This document shows, in pieces, positions 35,798 through 59,877 of a stretch of DNA of 64,000 nt; positions within the stretch are counted from its first letter, which is position 1, and each line of letters begins with the position of its first letter. This DNA is from a virus (Duplodnaviria > Heunggongvirae > Uroviricota > Caudoviricetes), in IMG/VR virus record IMGVR_UViG_3300021255_000031; one strand, 5' to 3'. Both the position numbers and the translations under genes were made by a program. The notes below the pieces were generated by a model. That model searched no databases. It saw only the letters and a list, made by a program, of their open reading frames with translations, and was not told the origin of the DNA.

Positions 35798-37198
35798 TCA
35801 GGTGTCCTCAACTTCCTGGGCCTCCTCAATATCCGGAGCAACAGCTTCATCCTTAGCGATACCCTCTAGTACCTTAAAAGAGAAGTTCTTATGCTTATAA
35901 ACCGCGAAGTTAGGACGGTTAAGGATACGCACGACTACGCCCTCGCGCACATGAGTTTTACCGATAGGATCAGGGCCATCGAAGTACTGTTCTACCTTAC
36001 GAAGAACATACTCGCCAGCATTTACATTCTCAGGAATTACAAAGGTTTCAAATTCCATAACAGTATGAACGCCCATCTGCTCGCAGCGCTCCTTGATTTG
36101 CGCAGGAGAGTACTCTACCACATCACCATCGGCATTTACCATAGTCATACGATAGACATATACTTCGCAGCAAGGAGGAACATAATAGTCAGTCTCGCGC
36201 CACTCGGCTAAAGTATAATCACCAAGATCTTCCTTATCGACAAAAATTTCTTCATCGTAGTGGCCATTCTGTGCGCAGCCATAGGAAAACACAGTGATCT
36301 TACCATACTGCTTAGAGAACTCGGGGTCCTTTACCTTAGAATTCTGAACCTCAGACATGATGGGCGCGCCGCCAGGGCCCTGGAAGCCTACGATTTCGTA
36401 ATACACTACCTCGCCCTTACGAAGCTTGCCCTCAAATTTAGCCGCCATTGCGTGACGGAAATCATCGGACTCGTAAAAGCCGCCTTGACGAGTACCATCC
36501 AAAACTACACGACGAGTTCCAGTGATATATCCATATTCCTTGTACTCCTTACCAGGGCGATGGAACAGCGTATCGAGCCAAGACCGCTTGGTATGAACTA
36601 GAGGCAGATATCCGGTGCGTCCAGAGGTGCCGTGCATCTTTAGAGTTAGCTGGACGATATCGCCAACTTTAAACTTGTCGAGATTATAAGCAAGCTGCTC
36701 GGTATCTACGTGCTCGTAGAAGGTAGGCGCGATGTTGACCTTTGCCTTGCGAGGTGTCTTCGCGCCATGATACTGCACGGATGCATTGCTATGAGGAATA
36801 TACTTGCGGCAAATTTCCTCACCATTCAGAACATCAATGCGGTCGCCCACTTTAAGATCAGAGATAGTGCAGAAGTCAGCCAGTGAAGTAATAGGCATAA
36901 ACAAACCATCGGACTTCTCGCCACGAAGCTTGATAGCCTTGATGTTGCGCTTATCGGGGTCAAGATAACCACCGCAGTAGTTACCGTTCTCATCTTTACG
37001 GCGCACCAGGTCGTTTACCGCGCAATAGCGCTCAGAAAGTTGTAAGTCAACAGGAAAATAAATTCCCATTGTACCGAGTTGAGTATCAAGACTAACGATA
37101 GTATCGTTTCCGAAGAAAGTAGCCACCTGAAGCCTATCCGCGTTGGAGTGCGGGCGCAGATGCTCCACCTTTACTACATAACCACAGTGATCAGACAT
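35798..37198 (-). CDS. ATP-dependent RNA ligase (Rnl2/DRB0094-like) with N-terminal tRNA-binding-type OB domain
   Basis: HSNADRL, IKLRGEKSDG, motif I KMHG, YYEIVG, REGVVVR, YKHKN; own promoter at 37232-37260. Confidence 0.85.
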   Translation of the reverse strand: MSDHCGYVVKVEHLRPHSNADRLQVATFFGNDTIVSLDTQLGTMGIYFPVDLQLSERYCAVNDLVRRKDENGNYCGGYLDPDKRNIKAIKLRGEKSDGLFMPITSLADFCTISDLKVGDRIDVLNGEEICRKYIPHSNASVQYHGAKTPRKAKVNIAPTFYEHVDTEQLAYNLDKFKVGDIVQLTLKMHGTSGRTGYLPLVHTKRSWLDTLFHRPGKEYKEYGYITGTRRVVLDGTRQGGFYESDDFRHAMAAKFEGKLRKGEVVYYEIVGFQGPGGAPIMSEVQNSKVKDPEFSKQYGKITVFSYGCAQNGHYDEEIFVDKEDLGDYTLAEWRETDYYVPPCCEVYVYRMTMVNADGDVVEYSPAQIKERCEQMGVHTVMEFETFVIPENVNAGEYVLRKVEQYFDGPDPIGKTHVREGVVVRILNRPNFAVYKHKNFSFKVLEGIAKDEAVAPDIEEAQEVEDT

Positions 37199-43840: not shown

Positions 43841-45364
43841 TTAGCAAATGTTCTTGTAACGGTCAGAATCTAACTTCTGGAACATCAAGTCTTGTGCCGT
43901 GAGTCCCTTTAAAATCTGTTCGTATAGTACAGGAGAACAACCGCTTACGAAGGTTACGCCAGTCTTAGAGTCTTCCAGGAAAGTATTATTGCGGGCATTG
44001 ACATCCCAATACACAAGGTTGGGAAAATCATACCAGCCGCCGCACCTAGCTTCCCACTTCTGACGAATAGAAGACATAAAGTCCGTCTTTTGATAACCAT
44101 AACGCCCAGTTGCCGCATCAACTTCCATATCGCTTACGATGATAAGAGTCTTAGGCATATCTTCGGGATCAACATTATTTTGTATTGCGGTATTTAGCAC
44201 TAGGTCAAATACGCTTTGTAGATTAGTATTCTCACAAAGATTGGTACTTACGATACGTGCTACCTTATCACAAAAATCCACACCCTTAGTCTCAACTAGA
44301 CGAGCAGTATGGCTGAAGGAGATGTAATGATTTGCGAAAGGCCCCTTAGCACGCTCTGCGGTATAGAGCGCAAGAGATACTGCAACATCAATGGGCTGTA
44401 CAGAGGTGCCGGAGCCCCAACACATACTTCCTGAGGTATCGCAAACAACCATAGCGTTGAGGGTAGCACCTTTGAAGTAATCAGTAAGATTGTCCCAATA
44501 CTTATTTACCATAAGGCGCTCAGTATCATTAAGTGCAGGCTCATTATAACGGTTACCCATACACTTAATTGCGGCCGCCACTACATCATAAGGATATAGA
44601 GTACCAGCATTGACCTTAGTAGTCTTATCCTGTGCAAAAGCCTTGTACTTTTCGGCAATCAGGCCCTTACTCTTAAACACATTACGATAGATAAGACCAG
44701 CGCGAGAAGGAAGCTTAGAGAAGTCAATTTCTTCCCAACGGTTCTGAGACATAAGACGCTCTACTACCTTAATACGCTCACGCAGCATAGAGAGCATCTT
44801 ACGATACTCACGAGGAGTAAGCTCAAGAGCAGCCATAACGCGGCGAGCATTATGACGAGTAGTAGCACTAGATGTATTCTCGGAAGGCATCCACTTCGCG
44901 CAAAGAGATACCGATGCCCGAGGATCATCATTATAAATAGCCATATCGCGGGTTAGCTGATGACGAATGAGTGCCATTACTTCACGCTCAACAGGAGTAT
45001 CGAAGAGTACAAACAGGTCGTCCCAACGGATAAAGTTGCCATCTACCCACTCACGCAGATTCTGGCGGGCGGCTTCAGGATAGTTATTACCAAGCCAACG
45101 CAGACATACACGGAAGAAACGACGCTCACCTTGTCCTTCCATAATATCTCTGAGGTACGTCAGGCACTTCATCGCATATCGAGGGTTCTCCATATAGGCT
45201 TCCTTAAAGAGAAGCACGCAATCACTCTCGCTACGAGTGCGGTAAGCTCCACCAAGAGCAAACAGGTCATAAAGTTTAGACATGGATGACTTCTTGGCAA
45301 TAGCACCATTTTCGGTACACTTAAAATTATTCTGGGACTTCATCGCGTTCATAAAAGTATTCAT
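43841..45364 (-). CDS. DUF2828-like TROVE/vWA protein (Ro60/Rsr-like architecture)
   Basis: TENGA, YLRDIMEGQGER, LCAKWMP; vWA MIDAS DTSGSM, IVSDME, VYWDV; own promoter at 45429-45457. Confidence 0.75.
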   Translation of the reverse strand: MNTFMNAMKSQNNFKCTENGAIAKKSSMSKLYDLFALGGAYRTRSESDCVLLFKEAYMENPRYAMKCLTYLRDIMEGQGERRFFRVCLRWLGNNYPEAARQNLREWVDGNFIRWDDLFVLFDTPVEREVMALIRHQLTRDMAIYNDDPRASVSLCAKWMPSENTSSATTRHNARRVMAALELTPREYRKMLSMLRERIKVVERLMSQNRWEEIDFSKLPSRAGLIYRNVFKSKGLIAEKYKAFAQDKTTKVNAGTLYPYDVVAAAIKCMGNRYNEPALNDTERLMVNKYWDNLTDYFKGATLNAMVVCDTSGSMCWGSGTSVQPIDVAVSLALYTAERAKGPFANHYISFSHTARLVETKGVDFCDKVARIVSTNLCENTNLQSVFDLVLNTAIQNNVDPEDMPKTLIIVSDMEVDAATGRYGYQKTDFMSSIRQKWEARCGGWYDFPNLVYWDVNARNNTFLEDSKTGVTFVSGCSPVLYEQILKGLTAQDLMFQKLDSDRYKNIC

Positions 45365-45446
45365 AATTTTTTCTCTCCTTCTCATCTTAGTCTTTTGTCA
45401 AGACCGCAGGTTTTTTCTTTATGTATTTATTATAACATAATTTTGA

Positions 45447-49231: not shown

Positions 49232-49421
49232 AGCTCCCGATAGGACTTGAACCTACAACCTGCGCATTACTGGAGCCGAGTGTGAGTTATGAACTCACAT
49301 ATCTTCGCCTAATTGATTCGTCAATCAATTAGTTTATCATACGGTCTTTTCCCTGTGATTCGGGTGTTTTACTTTAAACTAACTCGACAAGTGCGCTGCT
49401 CTACCATTGAGCTACAAGAGC
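49232..49421 (-). tRNA. tRNA-Thr(UGU) interrupted between nt 34 and 35 by a 118-nt tRNA-like insert (49271-49388)
   Basis: Removing the insert gives a 72-nt cloverleaf with GCGCA-CT TGT AA-TGCGC. Confidence 0.88.
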
Positions 49422-49519: not shown

Positions 49520-49648
49520 ATTGTGGGTAAGGATTTGCACCTTACATGATTTCCTTCTGAGTAAAATCTATGACCTCATAGCCAAGCCAAGTCTTCCTTG
49601 ATGCACGGGTTCAAACCGTCTAGCGTCTACCTATTCCGCCACCACAAT
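49520..49648 (-). ncRNA. tRNA-like RNA: Leu/Ser-type D arm, UGA loop, variable region of about 60 nt
   Basis: TTGTGG/CCACAA acceptor, GGCGGAATAGGTAGACGC, ACGG-TTTGAAC-CCGT, TAAGG-TGCAAAT-CCTTA. Confidence 0.65.
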
Positions 49649-50632: not shown

Positions 50633-50705
50633 CTGGGATGGCTGGATTTGAACCAGCGAATGCGGGAGTCAAAGTCCCGTGCCTTAACCGCTTGGCTACA
50701 TCCCA
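50633..50705 (-). tRNA. tRNA-Gln(UUG)
   Basis: Canonical cloverleaf, CT TTG AC loop. Confidence 0.93.
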
Positions 50706-51871: not shown

Positions 51872-52019
51872 TGTGCCCGGCGAGGCTCGAACTCGCGACC
51901 CCTTGATTATGGTGGAGTATCAAGGTATTGCACCTTGTCCTCTATTAGACGTCTCTAATAGTATGCTCTTTACATTACTACCCCAAAGTCAAGTGCTCTA
52001 CCAACTGAGCTACGGGCAC
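51872..52019 (-). tRNA. tRNA-Lys(UUU) interrupted between nt 35 and 36 by a 75-nt tRNA-like insert (51910-51984)
   Basis: Removing the insert gives a 73-nt cloverleaf with CTTGA-CT TTT AA-TCAAG. Confidence 0.9.
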
Positions 52020-52298: not shown

Positions 52299-52715
52299 TC
52301 AAAGAGTGACAAGATATTTTGAAGTATCAATCTTCACATTACTAGCAAATTTAGATGGTGGTTCAATACGTAGAGCAATTTGCTTTACATTACCTGCTGC
52401 CCTTAAATCTGCCATAGGAATTACAAACATATGTTGGTCTTTATCTAAACAAAATAGATAATCTAATGGATGATTTAATATAGTATCATATACACTACCA
52501 TTAGTACCACCACAACTTTTAAGTACAATACTATTACTTTCACTTCCGGTAGCCTTACATTGAACAGTTTGAAATACTCCATCCTTTTCAACAATAAAGT
52601 CATACCATTGAGTATCATTTAGCGGAACATTTACAGTATATCCATTGGCTCCAAACCAAGCTATACCGAGCGCCATGCCTGCGCGTCCTTTGTCTTTGTT
52701 AGTTTCAAATAACAT
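52299..52715 (-). CDS. Free-standing PD-(D/E)XK endonuclease (homing-endonuclease-like) inside the tRNA array
   Basis: KGRAG...GYTVNVPLND...YDFIV...VQCKAT; SD AGGAGG before ATG at 52715. Confidence 0.75.
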   Translation of the reverse strand: MLFETNKDKGRAGMALGIAWFGANGYTVNVPLNDTQWYDFIVEKDGVFQTVQCKATGSESNSIVLKSCGGTNGSVYDTILNHPLDYLFCLDKDQHMFVIPMADLRAAGNVKQIALRIEPPSKFASNVKIDTSKYLVTL

Positions 52716-52801
52716 ATTATTCTCCTCCTGTGAGATAATTATTGTGGCCGATGACAGGAGCATCTTAATCTCATTAAGGAGCGACCTTAATGCTACCCAG
52801 T

Positions 52802-52913
52802 TGGTGGAATGTGGGAGAATTGAACTCCATCCTTATGGATCGACATTTGCAATGCCTACGTTATCACCTTGCGGTTTACCTCGGTGGCTACCCTGATGCC
52901 ACTTTCACATCCC
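52802..52913 (-). ncRNA. 112-nt tRNA-like RNA with G3-U70/A73/CCA acceptor and extra internal domain
   Basis: GGGATGT/ACATTCC-A-CCA, GGAG-TTCAATT-CTCC, GGCA-TTGCAAA-TGTC. Confidence 0.7.
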
Positions 52914-52917
52914 ATAA

Positions 52918-52990
52918 CATGCACACTAGTGCTCAAACCAGAATCTTCTGATTAAGAGCCAGATGCATTAACCAATTGTGTTAAAAGCCC
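52918..52990 (-). pseudogene. Degenerate tRNA-Lys(CUU)
   Basis: Anticodon arm TCTGG-CTCTTAA-TCAGA is intact, but acceptor strands GGGCTTT/TGTGCAT do not pair. Confidence 0.6.
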
Positions 52991-55260: not shown

Positions 55261-55589
55261 TATTATCCCTTTTTACTGATAAATTTCATTTCAATTTTGG
55301 TGCCATGAGGAATAATATAATTATTAAAATAATTATCTGGAAGAGAACAAATTATACTTGAGCCCTCTTTTTGGAAACAATCCTTATATTGTCCATTACC
55401 TTTCTCATCGAGTGTACGCATTAACCAATTATAAATGGAATCAATAAATTGACTTTTTGTCGCTGTGCTGCTTAGAGTTTCCTTATCCATATTATTTCCT
55501 CATTTCCTTTTTTCTAAAAAAATTATACCATAATTTTAGAGAAAAGTCAATTATAAAAATAAGATGGAAAAAATCCATCTTTTAAATAC

Positions 55590-55697
55590 TAGGCGTCTTA
55601 TTTATTGTCCTACCAATTGGACGATTCGCAAAAAGGATTGCAAAATGGGACTCGAACCCATAACCTATAAAGGCATAATTGTTGCTGAAAACGCCTA
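55590..55697 (-). ncRNA. CAGCAA-scaffold RNA, copy 5, with circularly permuted tRNA module
   Basis: TAGGCGT/ACGCCTA helix; T arm, then acceptor 3' strand TTTGCAA, linker, acceptor 5' strand TTGCGAA, then D arm. Confidence 0.8.
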
Positions 55698-55700
55698 TAA

Positions 55701-55817
55701 TGCTATCGAGTGGATTTGAACCACCACTGCGTAGATTTTGAAGGTCAATGTAAGTGATGACCTTACCGCGCTCTGGCTATTGACCGTCTACTGCCTCTGC
55801 CGTTGGGCTACGATAGC
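55701..55817 (-). tRNA. tRNA-Leu(CAA) with short variable loop, interrupted between nt 32 and 33 by a 44-nt acceptor/T-arm mini-tRNA (55742-55785)
   Basis: Removing the insert gives a 73-nt cloverleaf with GTAGA-CT CAA AA-TCTAC. Confidence 0.85.
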
Positions 55818-55828
55818 AAATTAAAAAC

Positions 55829-55945
55829 TAGACCCACTTATTACGCGCTCTACCATTAAGCTATTTGGGCTTAAAAGCCCAAAGATGGAATCGAACCATC
55901 ACATACGTGCCCCACATGCAAAAGAAATAATTGCTGACAGGTCTA
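55829..55945 (-). ncRNA. CAGCAA-scaffold RNA, copy 6, with circularly permuted tRNA module
   Basis: TAGACC/GGTCTA helix; GATGG-TTCGATT-CCATC, TTTGGGC-TTTTAA-GCCCAAA, GCTT-AATGGTA-GAGC. Confidence 0.8.
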
Positions 55946-55948
55946 AAA

Positions 55949-56036
55949 TCCTACTCCCACGACTTGAACGTGGACTAACCTTGTGAGGGTCTCCGGCTTA
56001 TAAGGCCGTGGCATGTACCAATTATGCTTGAGTAGG
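55949..56036 (-). tRNA. tRNA with UAU anticodon (Ile, AUA-reading) and long variable arm
   Basis: CCTACTC/GAGTAGG acceptor, CGGC-CT TAT AA-GCCG, variable arm of about 19 nt. Confidence 0.8.
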
Positions 56037-56042
56037 AAAATC

Positions 56043-56161
56043 AAGACGGCGAAATGAATGCTACCGCTACACCAAACATAAGTGCCCATCTATGCTGCGG
56101 GATTCGAACCCGCCCCTTTATTATACTGCATAAATTTTCAAAATAATTGCTGAACCGTCTT
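56043..56161 (-). ncRNA. CAGCAA-scaffold RNA, copy 7, with circularly permuted tRNA module
   Basis: AAGACGG/CCGTCTT helix; GCGGG-TTCGAAT-CCCGC, AGCATAG...TTATGTT, TGGTGTAGCGGTAGCAT. Confidence 0.75.
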
Positions 56162-56241: not shown

Positions 56242-56300
56242 ATATTGGGAACTTTCGTTCCCTTTTGATATATTTATTATAGCATAAATTTAGAAAAAAG

Positions 56301-56849
56301 TCAATTACTTGAACTACAACAAGTAGTTGTAATCCAACCATGATTAGTCATATTTAACTTAAATTCTGTTTCATTTGCCGTACAGAAAAACACGCCTTCC
56401 GCTGCTTCAAATATATTCTTTGCAATCTCTTGATACAAAGTAGTTCTATTACCATAGATATCGCCAAGATCATCAATATAATACTGTACTACTTGTTTCT
56501 TAAAGACAACATAAGTTAGTGTATTAGACATAACGCCTTCAATTGTCACTACCTTTTCTAGTGCAGGATTATCAGCAAATGCTCTCTCATAAAGATTCGC
56601 ACGATTTAGCTTTAATGCGGTCTTAGGCACATTCGCGGGAATGACGCTAACCTTTACAACCTGATTACCAAAATGCTTTTCAGTAGGTAGAAGCTGTCCT
56701 AGGGCATCAGCTTTATCTGCATTCTCTACATACACAGTAAGCTCTAATGTATCATTATCAAATATTACACCAATTTCCTTATCTTCCTGAAACATTGCCT
56801 TTACATCAGCATACCAAACCTGCCATGGACTGAGAATTTTTAGAGCCAT
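56301..56849 (-). CDS. Hypothetical protein within the tRNA array
   Basis: 182-aa ORF with SD GAGGT. Confidence 0.6.
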   Translation of the reverse strand: MALKILSPWQVWYADVKAMFQEDKEIGVIFDNDTLELTVYVENADKADALGQLLPTEKHFGNQVVKVSVIPANVPKTALKLNRANLYERAFADNPALEKVVTIEGVMSNTLTYVVFKKQVVQYYIDDLGDIYGNRTTLYQEIAKNIFEAAEGVFFCTANETEFKLNMTNHGWITTTCCSSSN

Positions 56850-56948
56850 AAATTTACCTCATTCTTATAAAATTAATGCTGGGCAGGGCGACACTCCCGC
56901 ATCTCCTAACAATGGGCGATAGCTGCCTGTTCTATCCTCCAACTTGAC

Positions 56949-57089
56949 CGCCCGGTGAGGGGCTCGAACCCCCGACACTGCGGTTAATACAGAGGCGAGA
57001 ATTGAACTCGCAACGTGGGCGTCCCTCACATGATTACCAAATCATCTCTCTGTCACAGCCGCATGCTCTACCGACTGAGCTAACCGGGC
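56949..57089 (-). tRNA. tRNA-Asn(GUU) interrupted in the anticodon (nt 35/36) by a 68-nt tRNA-like insert (56987-57054)
   Basis: Removing the insert gives a 73-nt cloverleaf with TGCGG-CT GTT AA-CCGCA. Confidence 0.88.
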
Positions 57090-57099
57090 AAATTCGGCA

Positions 57100-57345
57100 T
57101 GCTATCTCTGAGCTGACGAGCGCCGCACCCGTATAGTCTTACCTATAAGTAGCTATCCTAAATTAAGACCTGATAGCAAGGTAATTATAACCGCTCATAA
57201 CTGTTTACGTTACTTCGTTGGCGGCCGCAACGATAGGCATCTCACCCAGTCCAAGGCGGTTTTTACTCATGCTGGAGATTGTATTAAAGAAAATGTCAAC
57301 TAGTATAAGCCAGCATCCCGCTGAACTACATTTTCTTTTACAAGG
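57100..57345 (-). ncRNA. Unidentified structured RNA candidate (about 245 nt)
   Basis: No ORF; several perfect helices (ATGCTGG/CCAGCAT, CGTTG/CAACG, GCTATC/GATAGC, TATAG/CTATA). Confidence 0.45.
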
Positions 57346-57372
57346 CTCGTGCTCATTAAACACAAGCAGAAA

Positions 57373-59801: not shown

Positions 59802-59877
59802 AATATAGTCTCCTTGCGGTTCCCTACCCGCAATTTGTATTTCGTTGATTGGGTTCCTTTCCCCTTTCAACATAATA

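Follow-up and report, generated by a model that had tools for sequence, protein, structure and literature searches.

Group I introns in the tRNA-Leu(UAA) genes of bacteria and plastids are self-splicing, measure 200 nt or more, occupy fixed sites and are associated with homing endonucleases. The mascRNA and menRNA of MALAT1 and MEN-beta are tRNA-like units released by RNase P at the 5′ end and by RNase Z at the 3′ end; they are eukaryotic, and their flanks are not rejoined. In Lak megaphages, "enigmatic" tRNA introns were reported by Devoto et al. (2019; PMC6784885, Fig. 4) and again in 2026 (PMC13037316), with no mechanism proposed. Our literature search found no paper on the mechanism of such introns, though most subscription journals fell outside its coverage. 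The locus studied here lies in a 64,000-nt stretch of a tailed phage genome of the Caudoviricetes (IMG/VR record IMGVR_UViG_3300021255_000031), hereafter the window, in which a tRNA-Leu(CAA) gene is interrupted by a 44-nt insert shaped as the top half of a tRNA, with acceptor and T arm (55742–55785, minus strand). Judged from its sequence, the insert ends at the positions at which the host would trim tRNAs, which points to a tRNA splicing route not yet demonstrated.

The window comes from a large phage genome (GC about 35%) and carries a tRNA cluster on its minus strand, at 49.2–59.5 kb. The nearest relative is a complete 167-kb genome (G002/L013) that is 95–98% identical around the locus, and genome-wide statements rest on this sister genome, G002. 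A Firmicute host is suggested by the GH25 lysin, by best ligase matches in Bacillus phages and by CCA-less tRNA genes. The interrupted gene (55701–55817, minus strand) encodes a tRNA with a short variable arm, and the insert sits between C32 and U33. Exon 1 (55786–55817) comprises positions 1–32, that is, the acceptor 5′ strand, the D arm, the anticodon stem 5′ strand and C32. Exon 2 (55701–55741) comprises U33, the anticodon CAA (55740–55738), the anticodon stem 3′ strand, a short variable loop and the T arm, and ends with the acceptor 3′ strand and A73, CCA not being encoded. The gene lies in a small RNA operon that, by consensus match only, is headed by a sigma-70-type promoter (11/12; 56276–56304, minus strand) and closed by a terminator-like hairpin (55561–55581, minus strand).

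The alleles of the window and L013 are about 84% identical over the matched part, against 95–98% in the flanks, and all 17 exon pairs are kept between them, nine through compensatory change. In G002, the interrupted gene is the sole tRNA-Leu found. A separate Leu(TAA) in the window is intact, so that the interrupted gene need not be essential there; UUG accounts for 122 of 541 UUR codons in the long ORFs of the window. The same D-to-anticodon arm occurs uninterrupted at 29 loci, with the anticodon TAA in all of them, and CAA is confined to the two CCA-less alleles (same scaffold).

Every element of the insert described in the first-pass annotation is present at 55742–55785, and the strand, which it had omitted, is minus. 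The insert extends from +1 to the discriminator, without CCA. Its acceptor stem has 7 bp (GGTCAAT/ATTGACC): the 5′ strand occupies 55779–55785, with G+1 at 55785 marking the predicted RNase P cut, and the 3′ strand together with the unpaired discriminator T (U73, at 55742) occupies 55742–55749, with the predicted RNase Z cut at 55742/55741. The T arm (55750–55766) has 5 bp (GTAAG-GTCATCA-CTTAC), and its loop GTCATCA (55755–55761) is non-canonical in carrying G54 and U58. Between them lies a 12-nt connector, AGCCAGAGCGCG (55767–55778), a collapsed D arm with CAGA flanked by two invariant G–C pairs, which reads as a generic D arm from which the loop has been deleted. The connector G at 55773 is G13 and a putative equivalent of G19, its counterpart in the T loop being C56 at 55759, and T7, invariant across the ten family members, may be a relic of U8. 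The inner unit lacks the makings of a functional tRNA gene: it has neither D arm nor anticodon arm, only the connector. The single-sequence fold is modestly above chance (z −2.5; 5 of 200 shuffles equally good), and it is the covariation of homologues that settles its reality.

Ten phage members of the insert family were found, all in tRNA-Leu anticodon loops (CAA or TAA) and at sites 32/33, 34/35 or 35/36. Nine came from a search of viral and metagenome contigs with the unpaired bases of the insert, a pattern that did not include the ends and that partly builds in the invariance of those bases; the tenth, L191, was found independently, next to a homologue of a neighbouring gene. The host tRNAs include types with short and with long variable arms, and since one insert family occupies different sites in different host genes, repeated insertion is implied. 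Across the alignment, 99% of stem cells are paired and 10 of 12 pairs show compensatory changes, a covariation score reached by none of 500 shuffles, while slid controls were 25–43% paired. Unpaired bases are near-invariant and stems turn over; the acceptor pairs do so freely, the discriminator varies between A and U, and nine of the ten members begin with C+1. L191 differs at four unpaired positions, two of which are connector G13, changed to A, and T-loop C56, changed to U. This joint change, a single event, follows the pattern of a G19–C56-like pair and suggests that an elbow is formed, although the insert has no D-loop GG. Searches elsewhere gave only chance matches or none: eight chance matches in cellular genomes, with no copy by exact motif among 185,579 species; no insert match in cultured phages (blastn with the gene, 50,697 phage records); 12 matches, all chance, in an exon-junction scan with the window's own stem; and, in a second junction scan, L013 plus three unrelated hits.

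The register of the insert within its host gene is exact. The two strands of the host anticodon stem stand 51 nt apart, precisely 44 more than a 7-nt loop, and among the eight possible 44-nt deletions the cut at 32/33 alone yields both a loop with U33 and R37 and an insert with 7/7 acceptor pairs. The alternative cut at 31/32 was rejected, as it gives a U32 loop and an insert without terminal pairing. The predicted spliced junction reads GTAGAC-TCAAAATCTAC, and after removal of the insert the resulting 73-mer is called as tRNA-Leu(caa) by ARAGORN, which misses the interrupted gene; Rfam matches the latter at 38 bits. The locus thus has what defines the Lak-type introns descriptively: an insert in the anticodon loop, a tRNA restored by its removal, a tRNA-like insert (here the top half only) and intron-free alleles. 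The first-pass annotation had argued from reduction to the processing determinants that the insert is selected for excision. The shape of a tRNA top half speaks for that argument, as does exact removal, evident in the covariation of insert and exons and in the exact register at three sites; reduction to just these determinants is too simple a description, for the connector is near-invariant and probably rebuilds the elbow, and the T loop is non-canonical. Nor is the insert the smallest of its class, in which 44 nt is the commonest core size and cores of 41–42 nt occur.

Two classes of boundary are found within the family. An exact 7-nt loop is restored in nine of the ten members, in seven by a cut after CCA and in two, the window and its closest relative L013, by a cut after the discriminator N73. 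The exception, L097 (7624–7670), has an 8-nt loop after removal and one acceptor mismatch, which may represent decay, an A-run slip or a four-base anticodon. A systematic deletion test on fetched loci brought up 36 distinct inserts of the tRNA-shaped kind, whose cores range from 41 to 115 nt and which occupy sites 32/33, 34/35 and 35/36 only. Four of these lack CCA, a share biased low because two of the scans required CCA; all four, two in Leu and one each in Asn and Gln, have U73 as their last base and come from the clade of the window and L013. The Asn insert (68 nt, U73) lies in tRNA-Asn(GTT) of the window at site 35/36 (56987–57054, minus strand), and tRNA-Gln(TTG) carries a CCA-less 55-nt insert in L013 (15687–15741) and is intron-free in the window (50633–50705). 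In both inserts, the cut after U73 also restores 7 nt, and because GAC follows the Gln insert, its cut after N73 is not explicable as a decayed CCA. The other two interrupted genes of the window have CCA-ended inserts, one of 75 nt in tRNA-Lys(TTT) at site 35/36 (51910–51984, minus strand; G3-U70, with a tetraloop replacing the anticodon loop) and one of 118 nt in tRNA-Thr(TGT) at site 34/35 (49271–49388, minus strand).

In precursors without CCA the cut made by RNase Z, including that of B. subtilis, falls after N73; in those that carry CCA it falls after CCA and is far slower (PMC7479834). The rule of one enzyme thus predicts both boundary classes. Among the 22 tRNA genes of the window, 20 are without CCA, and 17 of these 20 have U74 (p about 4e-7), the trailer base that B. 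subtilis RNase Z binds in a pocket (PMC11649783); the phage depends on the RNase Z pathway. At site 32/33 the universal U33 of the host tRNA supplies U74, and the insert offers the remaining substrate features as well, namely acceptor and T arm, U73 and a 6-nt unpaired trailer. The earlier proposal that the insert carries RNase Z determinants thus gains sequence support from its CCA-less end, from a base other than C at 74 (host U33 as U74) and from CCA-bearing relatives that end exactly after CCA.

For RNase P, the picture is more mixed. The insert presents the 12-bp acceptor/T stack of an RNase P substrate and lacks the RCCA anchor and free leader, having no CCA and only one leader base that is unpaired. 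Firmicutes nevertheless process pre-tRNAs that lack CCA, and the missing anchor therefore weakens the case for RNase P without excluding it. Model substrates consisting of acceptor and T arm are cut by RNase P, the RCCA anchor being of help on minimal substrates (PMC11143913), and the elbow pair, for which the insert offers one compensatory change (connector G13 with C56), is read by both RNase P and RNase Z (PMC4810234).

A candidate for the joining step is encoded in the window at 35798–37198 (minus strand), an RNA ligase with an N-terminal OB fold (PF09414, PHA02142, DraRnl/Rnl5-like; PHROG 968, E 3e-67). Both the OB-fold and the adenylyltransferase domain gave matches; those to Pfam and TIGR02306 (E 1e-14) are below cut-off, and no relative of solved structure was found by sequence. 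PF09414 ligases occur in 7/7 insert-bearing genomes and in 0/5 with intron-free alleles (three of them near complete), a small sample of 12 genomes uncorrected for kinship. Characterised DraRnl-type ligases seal duplex nicks and not single-stranded or loop ends (PMC1807946), although the break here would lie only one base away from the anticodon stem and so resemble a nick. A search for splint RNAs at the four junctions found none. The physiological role of Rnl5-type ligases is described as uncharted in a passage of PMC5397189. The window also encodes a kinase and phosphoesterases, which could heal ends of other types. RtcB was not found in the phage genomes tested, nor was T4 Rnl1, the latter in a search without a positive control.

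From the anatomy, the covariation, the exact register, the two boundary classes and the co-occurrence of the ligase, we infer each enzymatic step of the following route. The 44-mer would act as a tRNA-mimic intron whose precursor folds into the 12-bp acceptor/T stack with a rebuilt elbow. Host RNase Z would cut after the discriminator U73, with U33 of the host tRNA as the first trailer base, and RNase P would cut before G+1. Exon 1 would be left with a 3′-OH at C32 and exon 2 with a 5′-phosphate at U33, the tRNA stems holding both, and the phage PF09414 ligase would seal these ends into tRNA-Leu(CAA). RNase P and RNase Z both leave 3′-OH and 5′-phosphate, and because the ends are of this kind an ATP-dependent ligase could join them without end-healing. 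This ligation step had been left out of the first-pass annotation.

We give the complete route, excision by RNase P and RNase Z with resealing by the phage ligase, an even chance. Precise removal at the RNA level is highly probable; the 3′ cut of the insert is probably made by RNase Z, the 5′ cut likely, if a little less surely, by RNase P, and sealing by the ligase of the window is favoured by a narrow degree, these judgements not being independent of one another. Falling just short of even is the wider proposal of a class of phage tRNA introns without a dedicated nuclease or ribozyme, of which the 44-nt insert would be a near-minimal form tuned to RNase Z via U33, its CAA anticodon perhaps derived from an ancestral CCA tail. 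Several features count against the route: the single unpaired leader base, the absence of an RCCA anchor, G54 and U58 in the T loop, C+1 in nine of ten members and the 8-nt loop that L097 would retain. To these are added the nick preference of DraRnl-type ligases and the presence in the same genome of CCA-ended inserts, which are slow for a B. subtilis-like RNase Z. Sheep-gut RNA libraries contain contigs identical to L013, and in four sheep-gut metatranscriptome runs compared with L013 one identical contig spans the Leu insert, unspliced. With L013 rather than the window as reference, no spliced joint at the Leu site was among the joints listed for these runs, and those listed at the Thr and Lys sites stem from other strains or tRNAs. 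RNA contigs of this kind are long fragments and cannot show mature tRNA.

The insert likely originated as a mature tRNA that was ligated or recombined into an anticodon loop and then shrank. The nearest exons, those of L057/L095, belong to a Leu(TAA) that is interrupted at this very site by a CCA-ended insert, from which the form in the window would differ by one 3-nt deletion and two substitutions. Two routes are conceivable, and the data do not choose between them: either CCA was lost and U34 changed to C, or TTA was lost and C74 changed to U, in which case C34 and A35 would be the last two bases of the old CCA. By the second route, the single change of C74 to U would both restore U33 and remove an RNase Z antideterminant.

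The spread of the insert may have been helped by a neighbouring HNH endonuclease associated with tRNA-Leu, a link of moderate strength from gene context. A possible reading, offered tentatively, is that the insert owes its persistence to disrupting the DNA site that a free-standing homing endonuclease would target in tRNA-Leu anticodon arms, and to being inherited together with that enzyme; splicing would then do no more than render it harmless. This reading is compatible with splicing by RNase P and RNase Z. The concept is that of collaborative homing (PMC2988022). An HNH gene directly follows tRNA-Leu in L013 (11299–11901), and one 45% identical to it follows the same insert family in L101. 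Six contexts of close HNH homologues were fetched regardless of inserts. In four, an intact Leu(CAA) immediately precedes the gene, and its anticodon stem is changed in every case; in three, an interrupted Leu(TAA) adjoins the gene. G002, which has the HNH gene, contains no intact GACTYAAAATC, and the window, without HNH at that place, contains one. On the other side, no endonuclease adjoins the copy in the window, L101 has an intact 11-mer beside its HNH gene, and the count of endonuclease neighbours (7/36 against 3/145) is biased, having been seeded with genes beside inserts. The HNH family has at least 723 proteins, and its closest members (L013, L101, L183–L192) adjoin tRNA-Leu genes.

If the insert is a precise intron, one or both cuts, or the sealing, could instead be the work of a dedicated phage or host enzyme that recognises the fold, which we consider unlikely. 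Such an enzyme would fit unpaired bases that stay near-invariant while the stems turn over, the non-canonical T loop and the one-base leader; moreover, most ORFs of the window belong to no family, and its kinase and phosphoesterases could heal other ends. Yet inserts of diverse sequence and core length (41–115 nt) share only the tRNA shape, T loops of the C56/A57 type and the ends of mature tRNAs, and these shared features are what general tRNA maturases read. The invariant bases are accounted for by elbow covariation without a new protein, and neither EndA (PF01974, with positive controls) nor an RNase Z-like gene was found in five phage genomes.

It is also conceivable, though rather improbable, that tRNA maturases make both cuts and the halves are not rejoined, the product being a mini-tRNA (a decoy for an anticodon nuclease, a synthetase or a sensor of uncharged tRNA) or a nicked tRNA. 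The ends of mature tRNAs would equally be expected if a mature tRNA had been captured and then retained for the sake of the RNA itself. Most of the relatives bear CCA, tRNA mimics are numerous in the cluster, and the ligase is of a nick-sealing type. Release alone, however, leaves unexplained the exact 7-nt loop with U33 and R37 at three sites, which was still 7 nt after the change from a CCA-ended to a CCA-less insert. No aminoacylation identity is kept either, given that the discriminator is A or U and the acceptor pairs turn over. With splicing, in turn, the excised insert cannot shield the mature tRNA from an anticodon nuclease.

Very unlikely, in our view, is a broken allele in the window, in which a CCA-ended ancestor lost TTA, the TCA after U73 is a decayed CCA, and cutting after position 76 leaves a 4-nt loop and thus a pseudogene or a non-decoding mimic. 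The junction does read as that of the CCA type minus TTA with C74 changed to T; 29/29 intron-free alleles are TAA, with CAA in the two CCA-less alleles only, and an intact Leu(TAA) is present in the window. Against decay, two alleles only 84% identical share the junction and keep all exon and insert pairs, no other Leu tRNA was found in G002, and the Gln insert belongs to the N73 class without any likeness to CCA. Deletion of TTA followed by C74 to U would, in addition, restore U33, remove the RNase Z antideterminant and so give a working CAA gene. That the insert splices itself as a very small RNA, or is cut by a bulge-helix-bulge endonuclease of the archaeal kind, might be suggested by the invariant unpaired bases and the anticodon-loop location (as in group I and archaeal introns), yet is scarcely credible, as a group I core (P1–P9) and terminal G are impossible in 44 nt, the insert ends in U and has no Rfam match, the junction is a 1-nt by 7-nt internal loop at 32/33 and not at site 37/38, the site moves within the loop, and the five genomes contain no PF01974.

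Further unusual tRNA genes and tRNA-like elements occur in the cluster and in related contigs. Circularly permuted tRNA-like modules, with the T arm before the D arm, flank the Leu gene (55587–55697, 55840–55908 and about 56040–56140, minus strand) and give weak Rfam matches to YrlA. A DUF2828/DUF7788 protein is encoded at 43841–45385, and in L057 the Leu gene has a homologue immediately upstream. A tRNA with the anticodon TAT (55948–56037, minus strand) has a long variable arm, unusual for Ile, and its homologue in L057 (1538–1586) carries a 49-nt insert ending in ACAA. The block at 52299–52985 (minus strand), missing from L013, comprises a truncated Lys(CTT)-like tRNA, a CCA-ended tRNA-framed RNA (G3-U70, weak tmRNA match) and a PD-(D/E)XK endonuclease gene (PF11645). 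Matches to the cow-rumen-3, cow-rumen-4 (both below cut-off) and skipping-rope RNA motifs fall in the tRNA cluster at 57224–57368, 59815–59873 and 56875–56946 (minus strand), and both ARAGORN and Rfam miss a tRNA-like gene whose loop is of the TGA type and whose variable region holds a long insertion (49520–49646, minus strand). In L150 (13658–13733), a complete 76-nt tRNA-Lys(TTT) with CCA is inserted at 34/35 of tRNA-Gln(TTG) and marks the end of the series at which no reduction has occurred. An amber-suppressor tRNA (CTA) is broken by a 51-nt CCA-ended insert in L126 (811–861), where TAG read-through could depend on splicing, and in L183 (7425–7503) a tRNA called by ARAGORN has an anticodon of four bases (tcaa).

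Set beside the known systems, the insert would work like mascRNA-type excision with ligation added: mascRNA and menRNA are likewise small tRNA-like units with ends of the kind predicted here for RNase P and RNase Z, and Rfam RF01684 gave no match to the insert. Group I introns of tRNA-Leu(UAA) share the host tRNA and the loop, and their core is absent from the insert. The archaeal and eukaryal tRNA introns (EndA/SEN with RtcB or Trl1) are also short, lie in the anticodon loop and are cut and rejoined by proteins, whereas the insert has no bulge-helix-bulge and its predicted ends are 3′-OH and 5′-phosphate, not cyclic phosphate and 5′-OH. The T4 Pnk-Rnl1 system is alike in that a phage ligase reseals a tRNA anticodon loop and unlike in that it repairs a single break made by an anticodon nuclease; the ligase of the window is DraRnl/Rnl5-like and not Rnl1. 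Should the proposed route hold, it would be a further way of splicing tRNA beside self-splicing and EndA/SEN, built from housekeeping enzymes, and would provide the first natural substrate for Rnl5-type ligases. The CCA-less insert is the cleanest test substrate, as efficient cutting by a standard B. subtilis RNase Z is to be expected for it, unlike for the common CCA-ended class. Because standard tRNA finders miss such genes (ARAGORN missed all four interrupted tRNA genes of the window), phage tRNA sets are undercounted.

The Lak introns resemble the insert most directly, being tRNA-like inserts in the anticodon loop of phage tRNAs with boundaries off the canonical 37/38 site. The Lak intron is a roughly full-size tRNA within tRNA-Thr(TGT), whereas the insert of the window, at 32/33 of tRNA-Leu in a phage of the 167-kb class, consists of a top half of 44 nt and has no D loop, anticodon arm or CCA. 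The present locus contributes the CCA-less form, the rule of two boundaries inside a single family of homologues, the covariation at the elbow and the link to an endonuclease, and if the route proposed for the window holds, the Lak introns, unexplained since 2019, would be accounted for as well.
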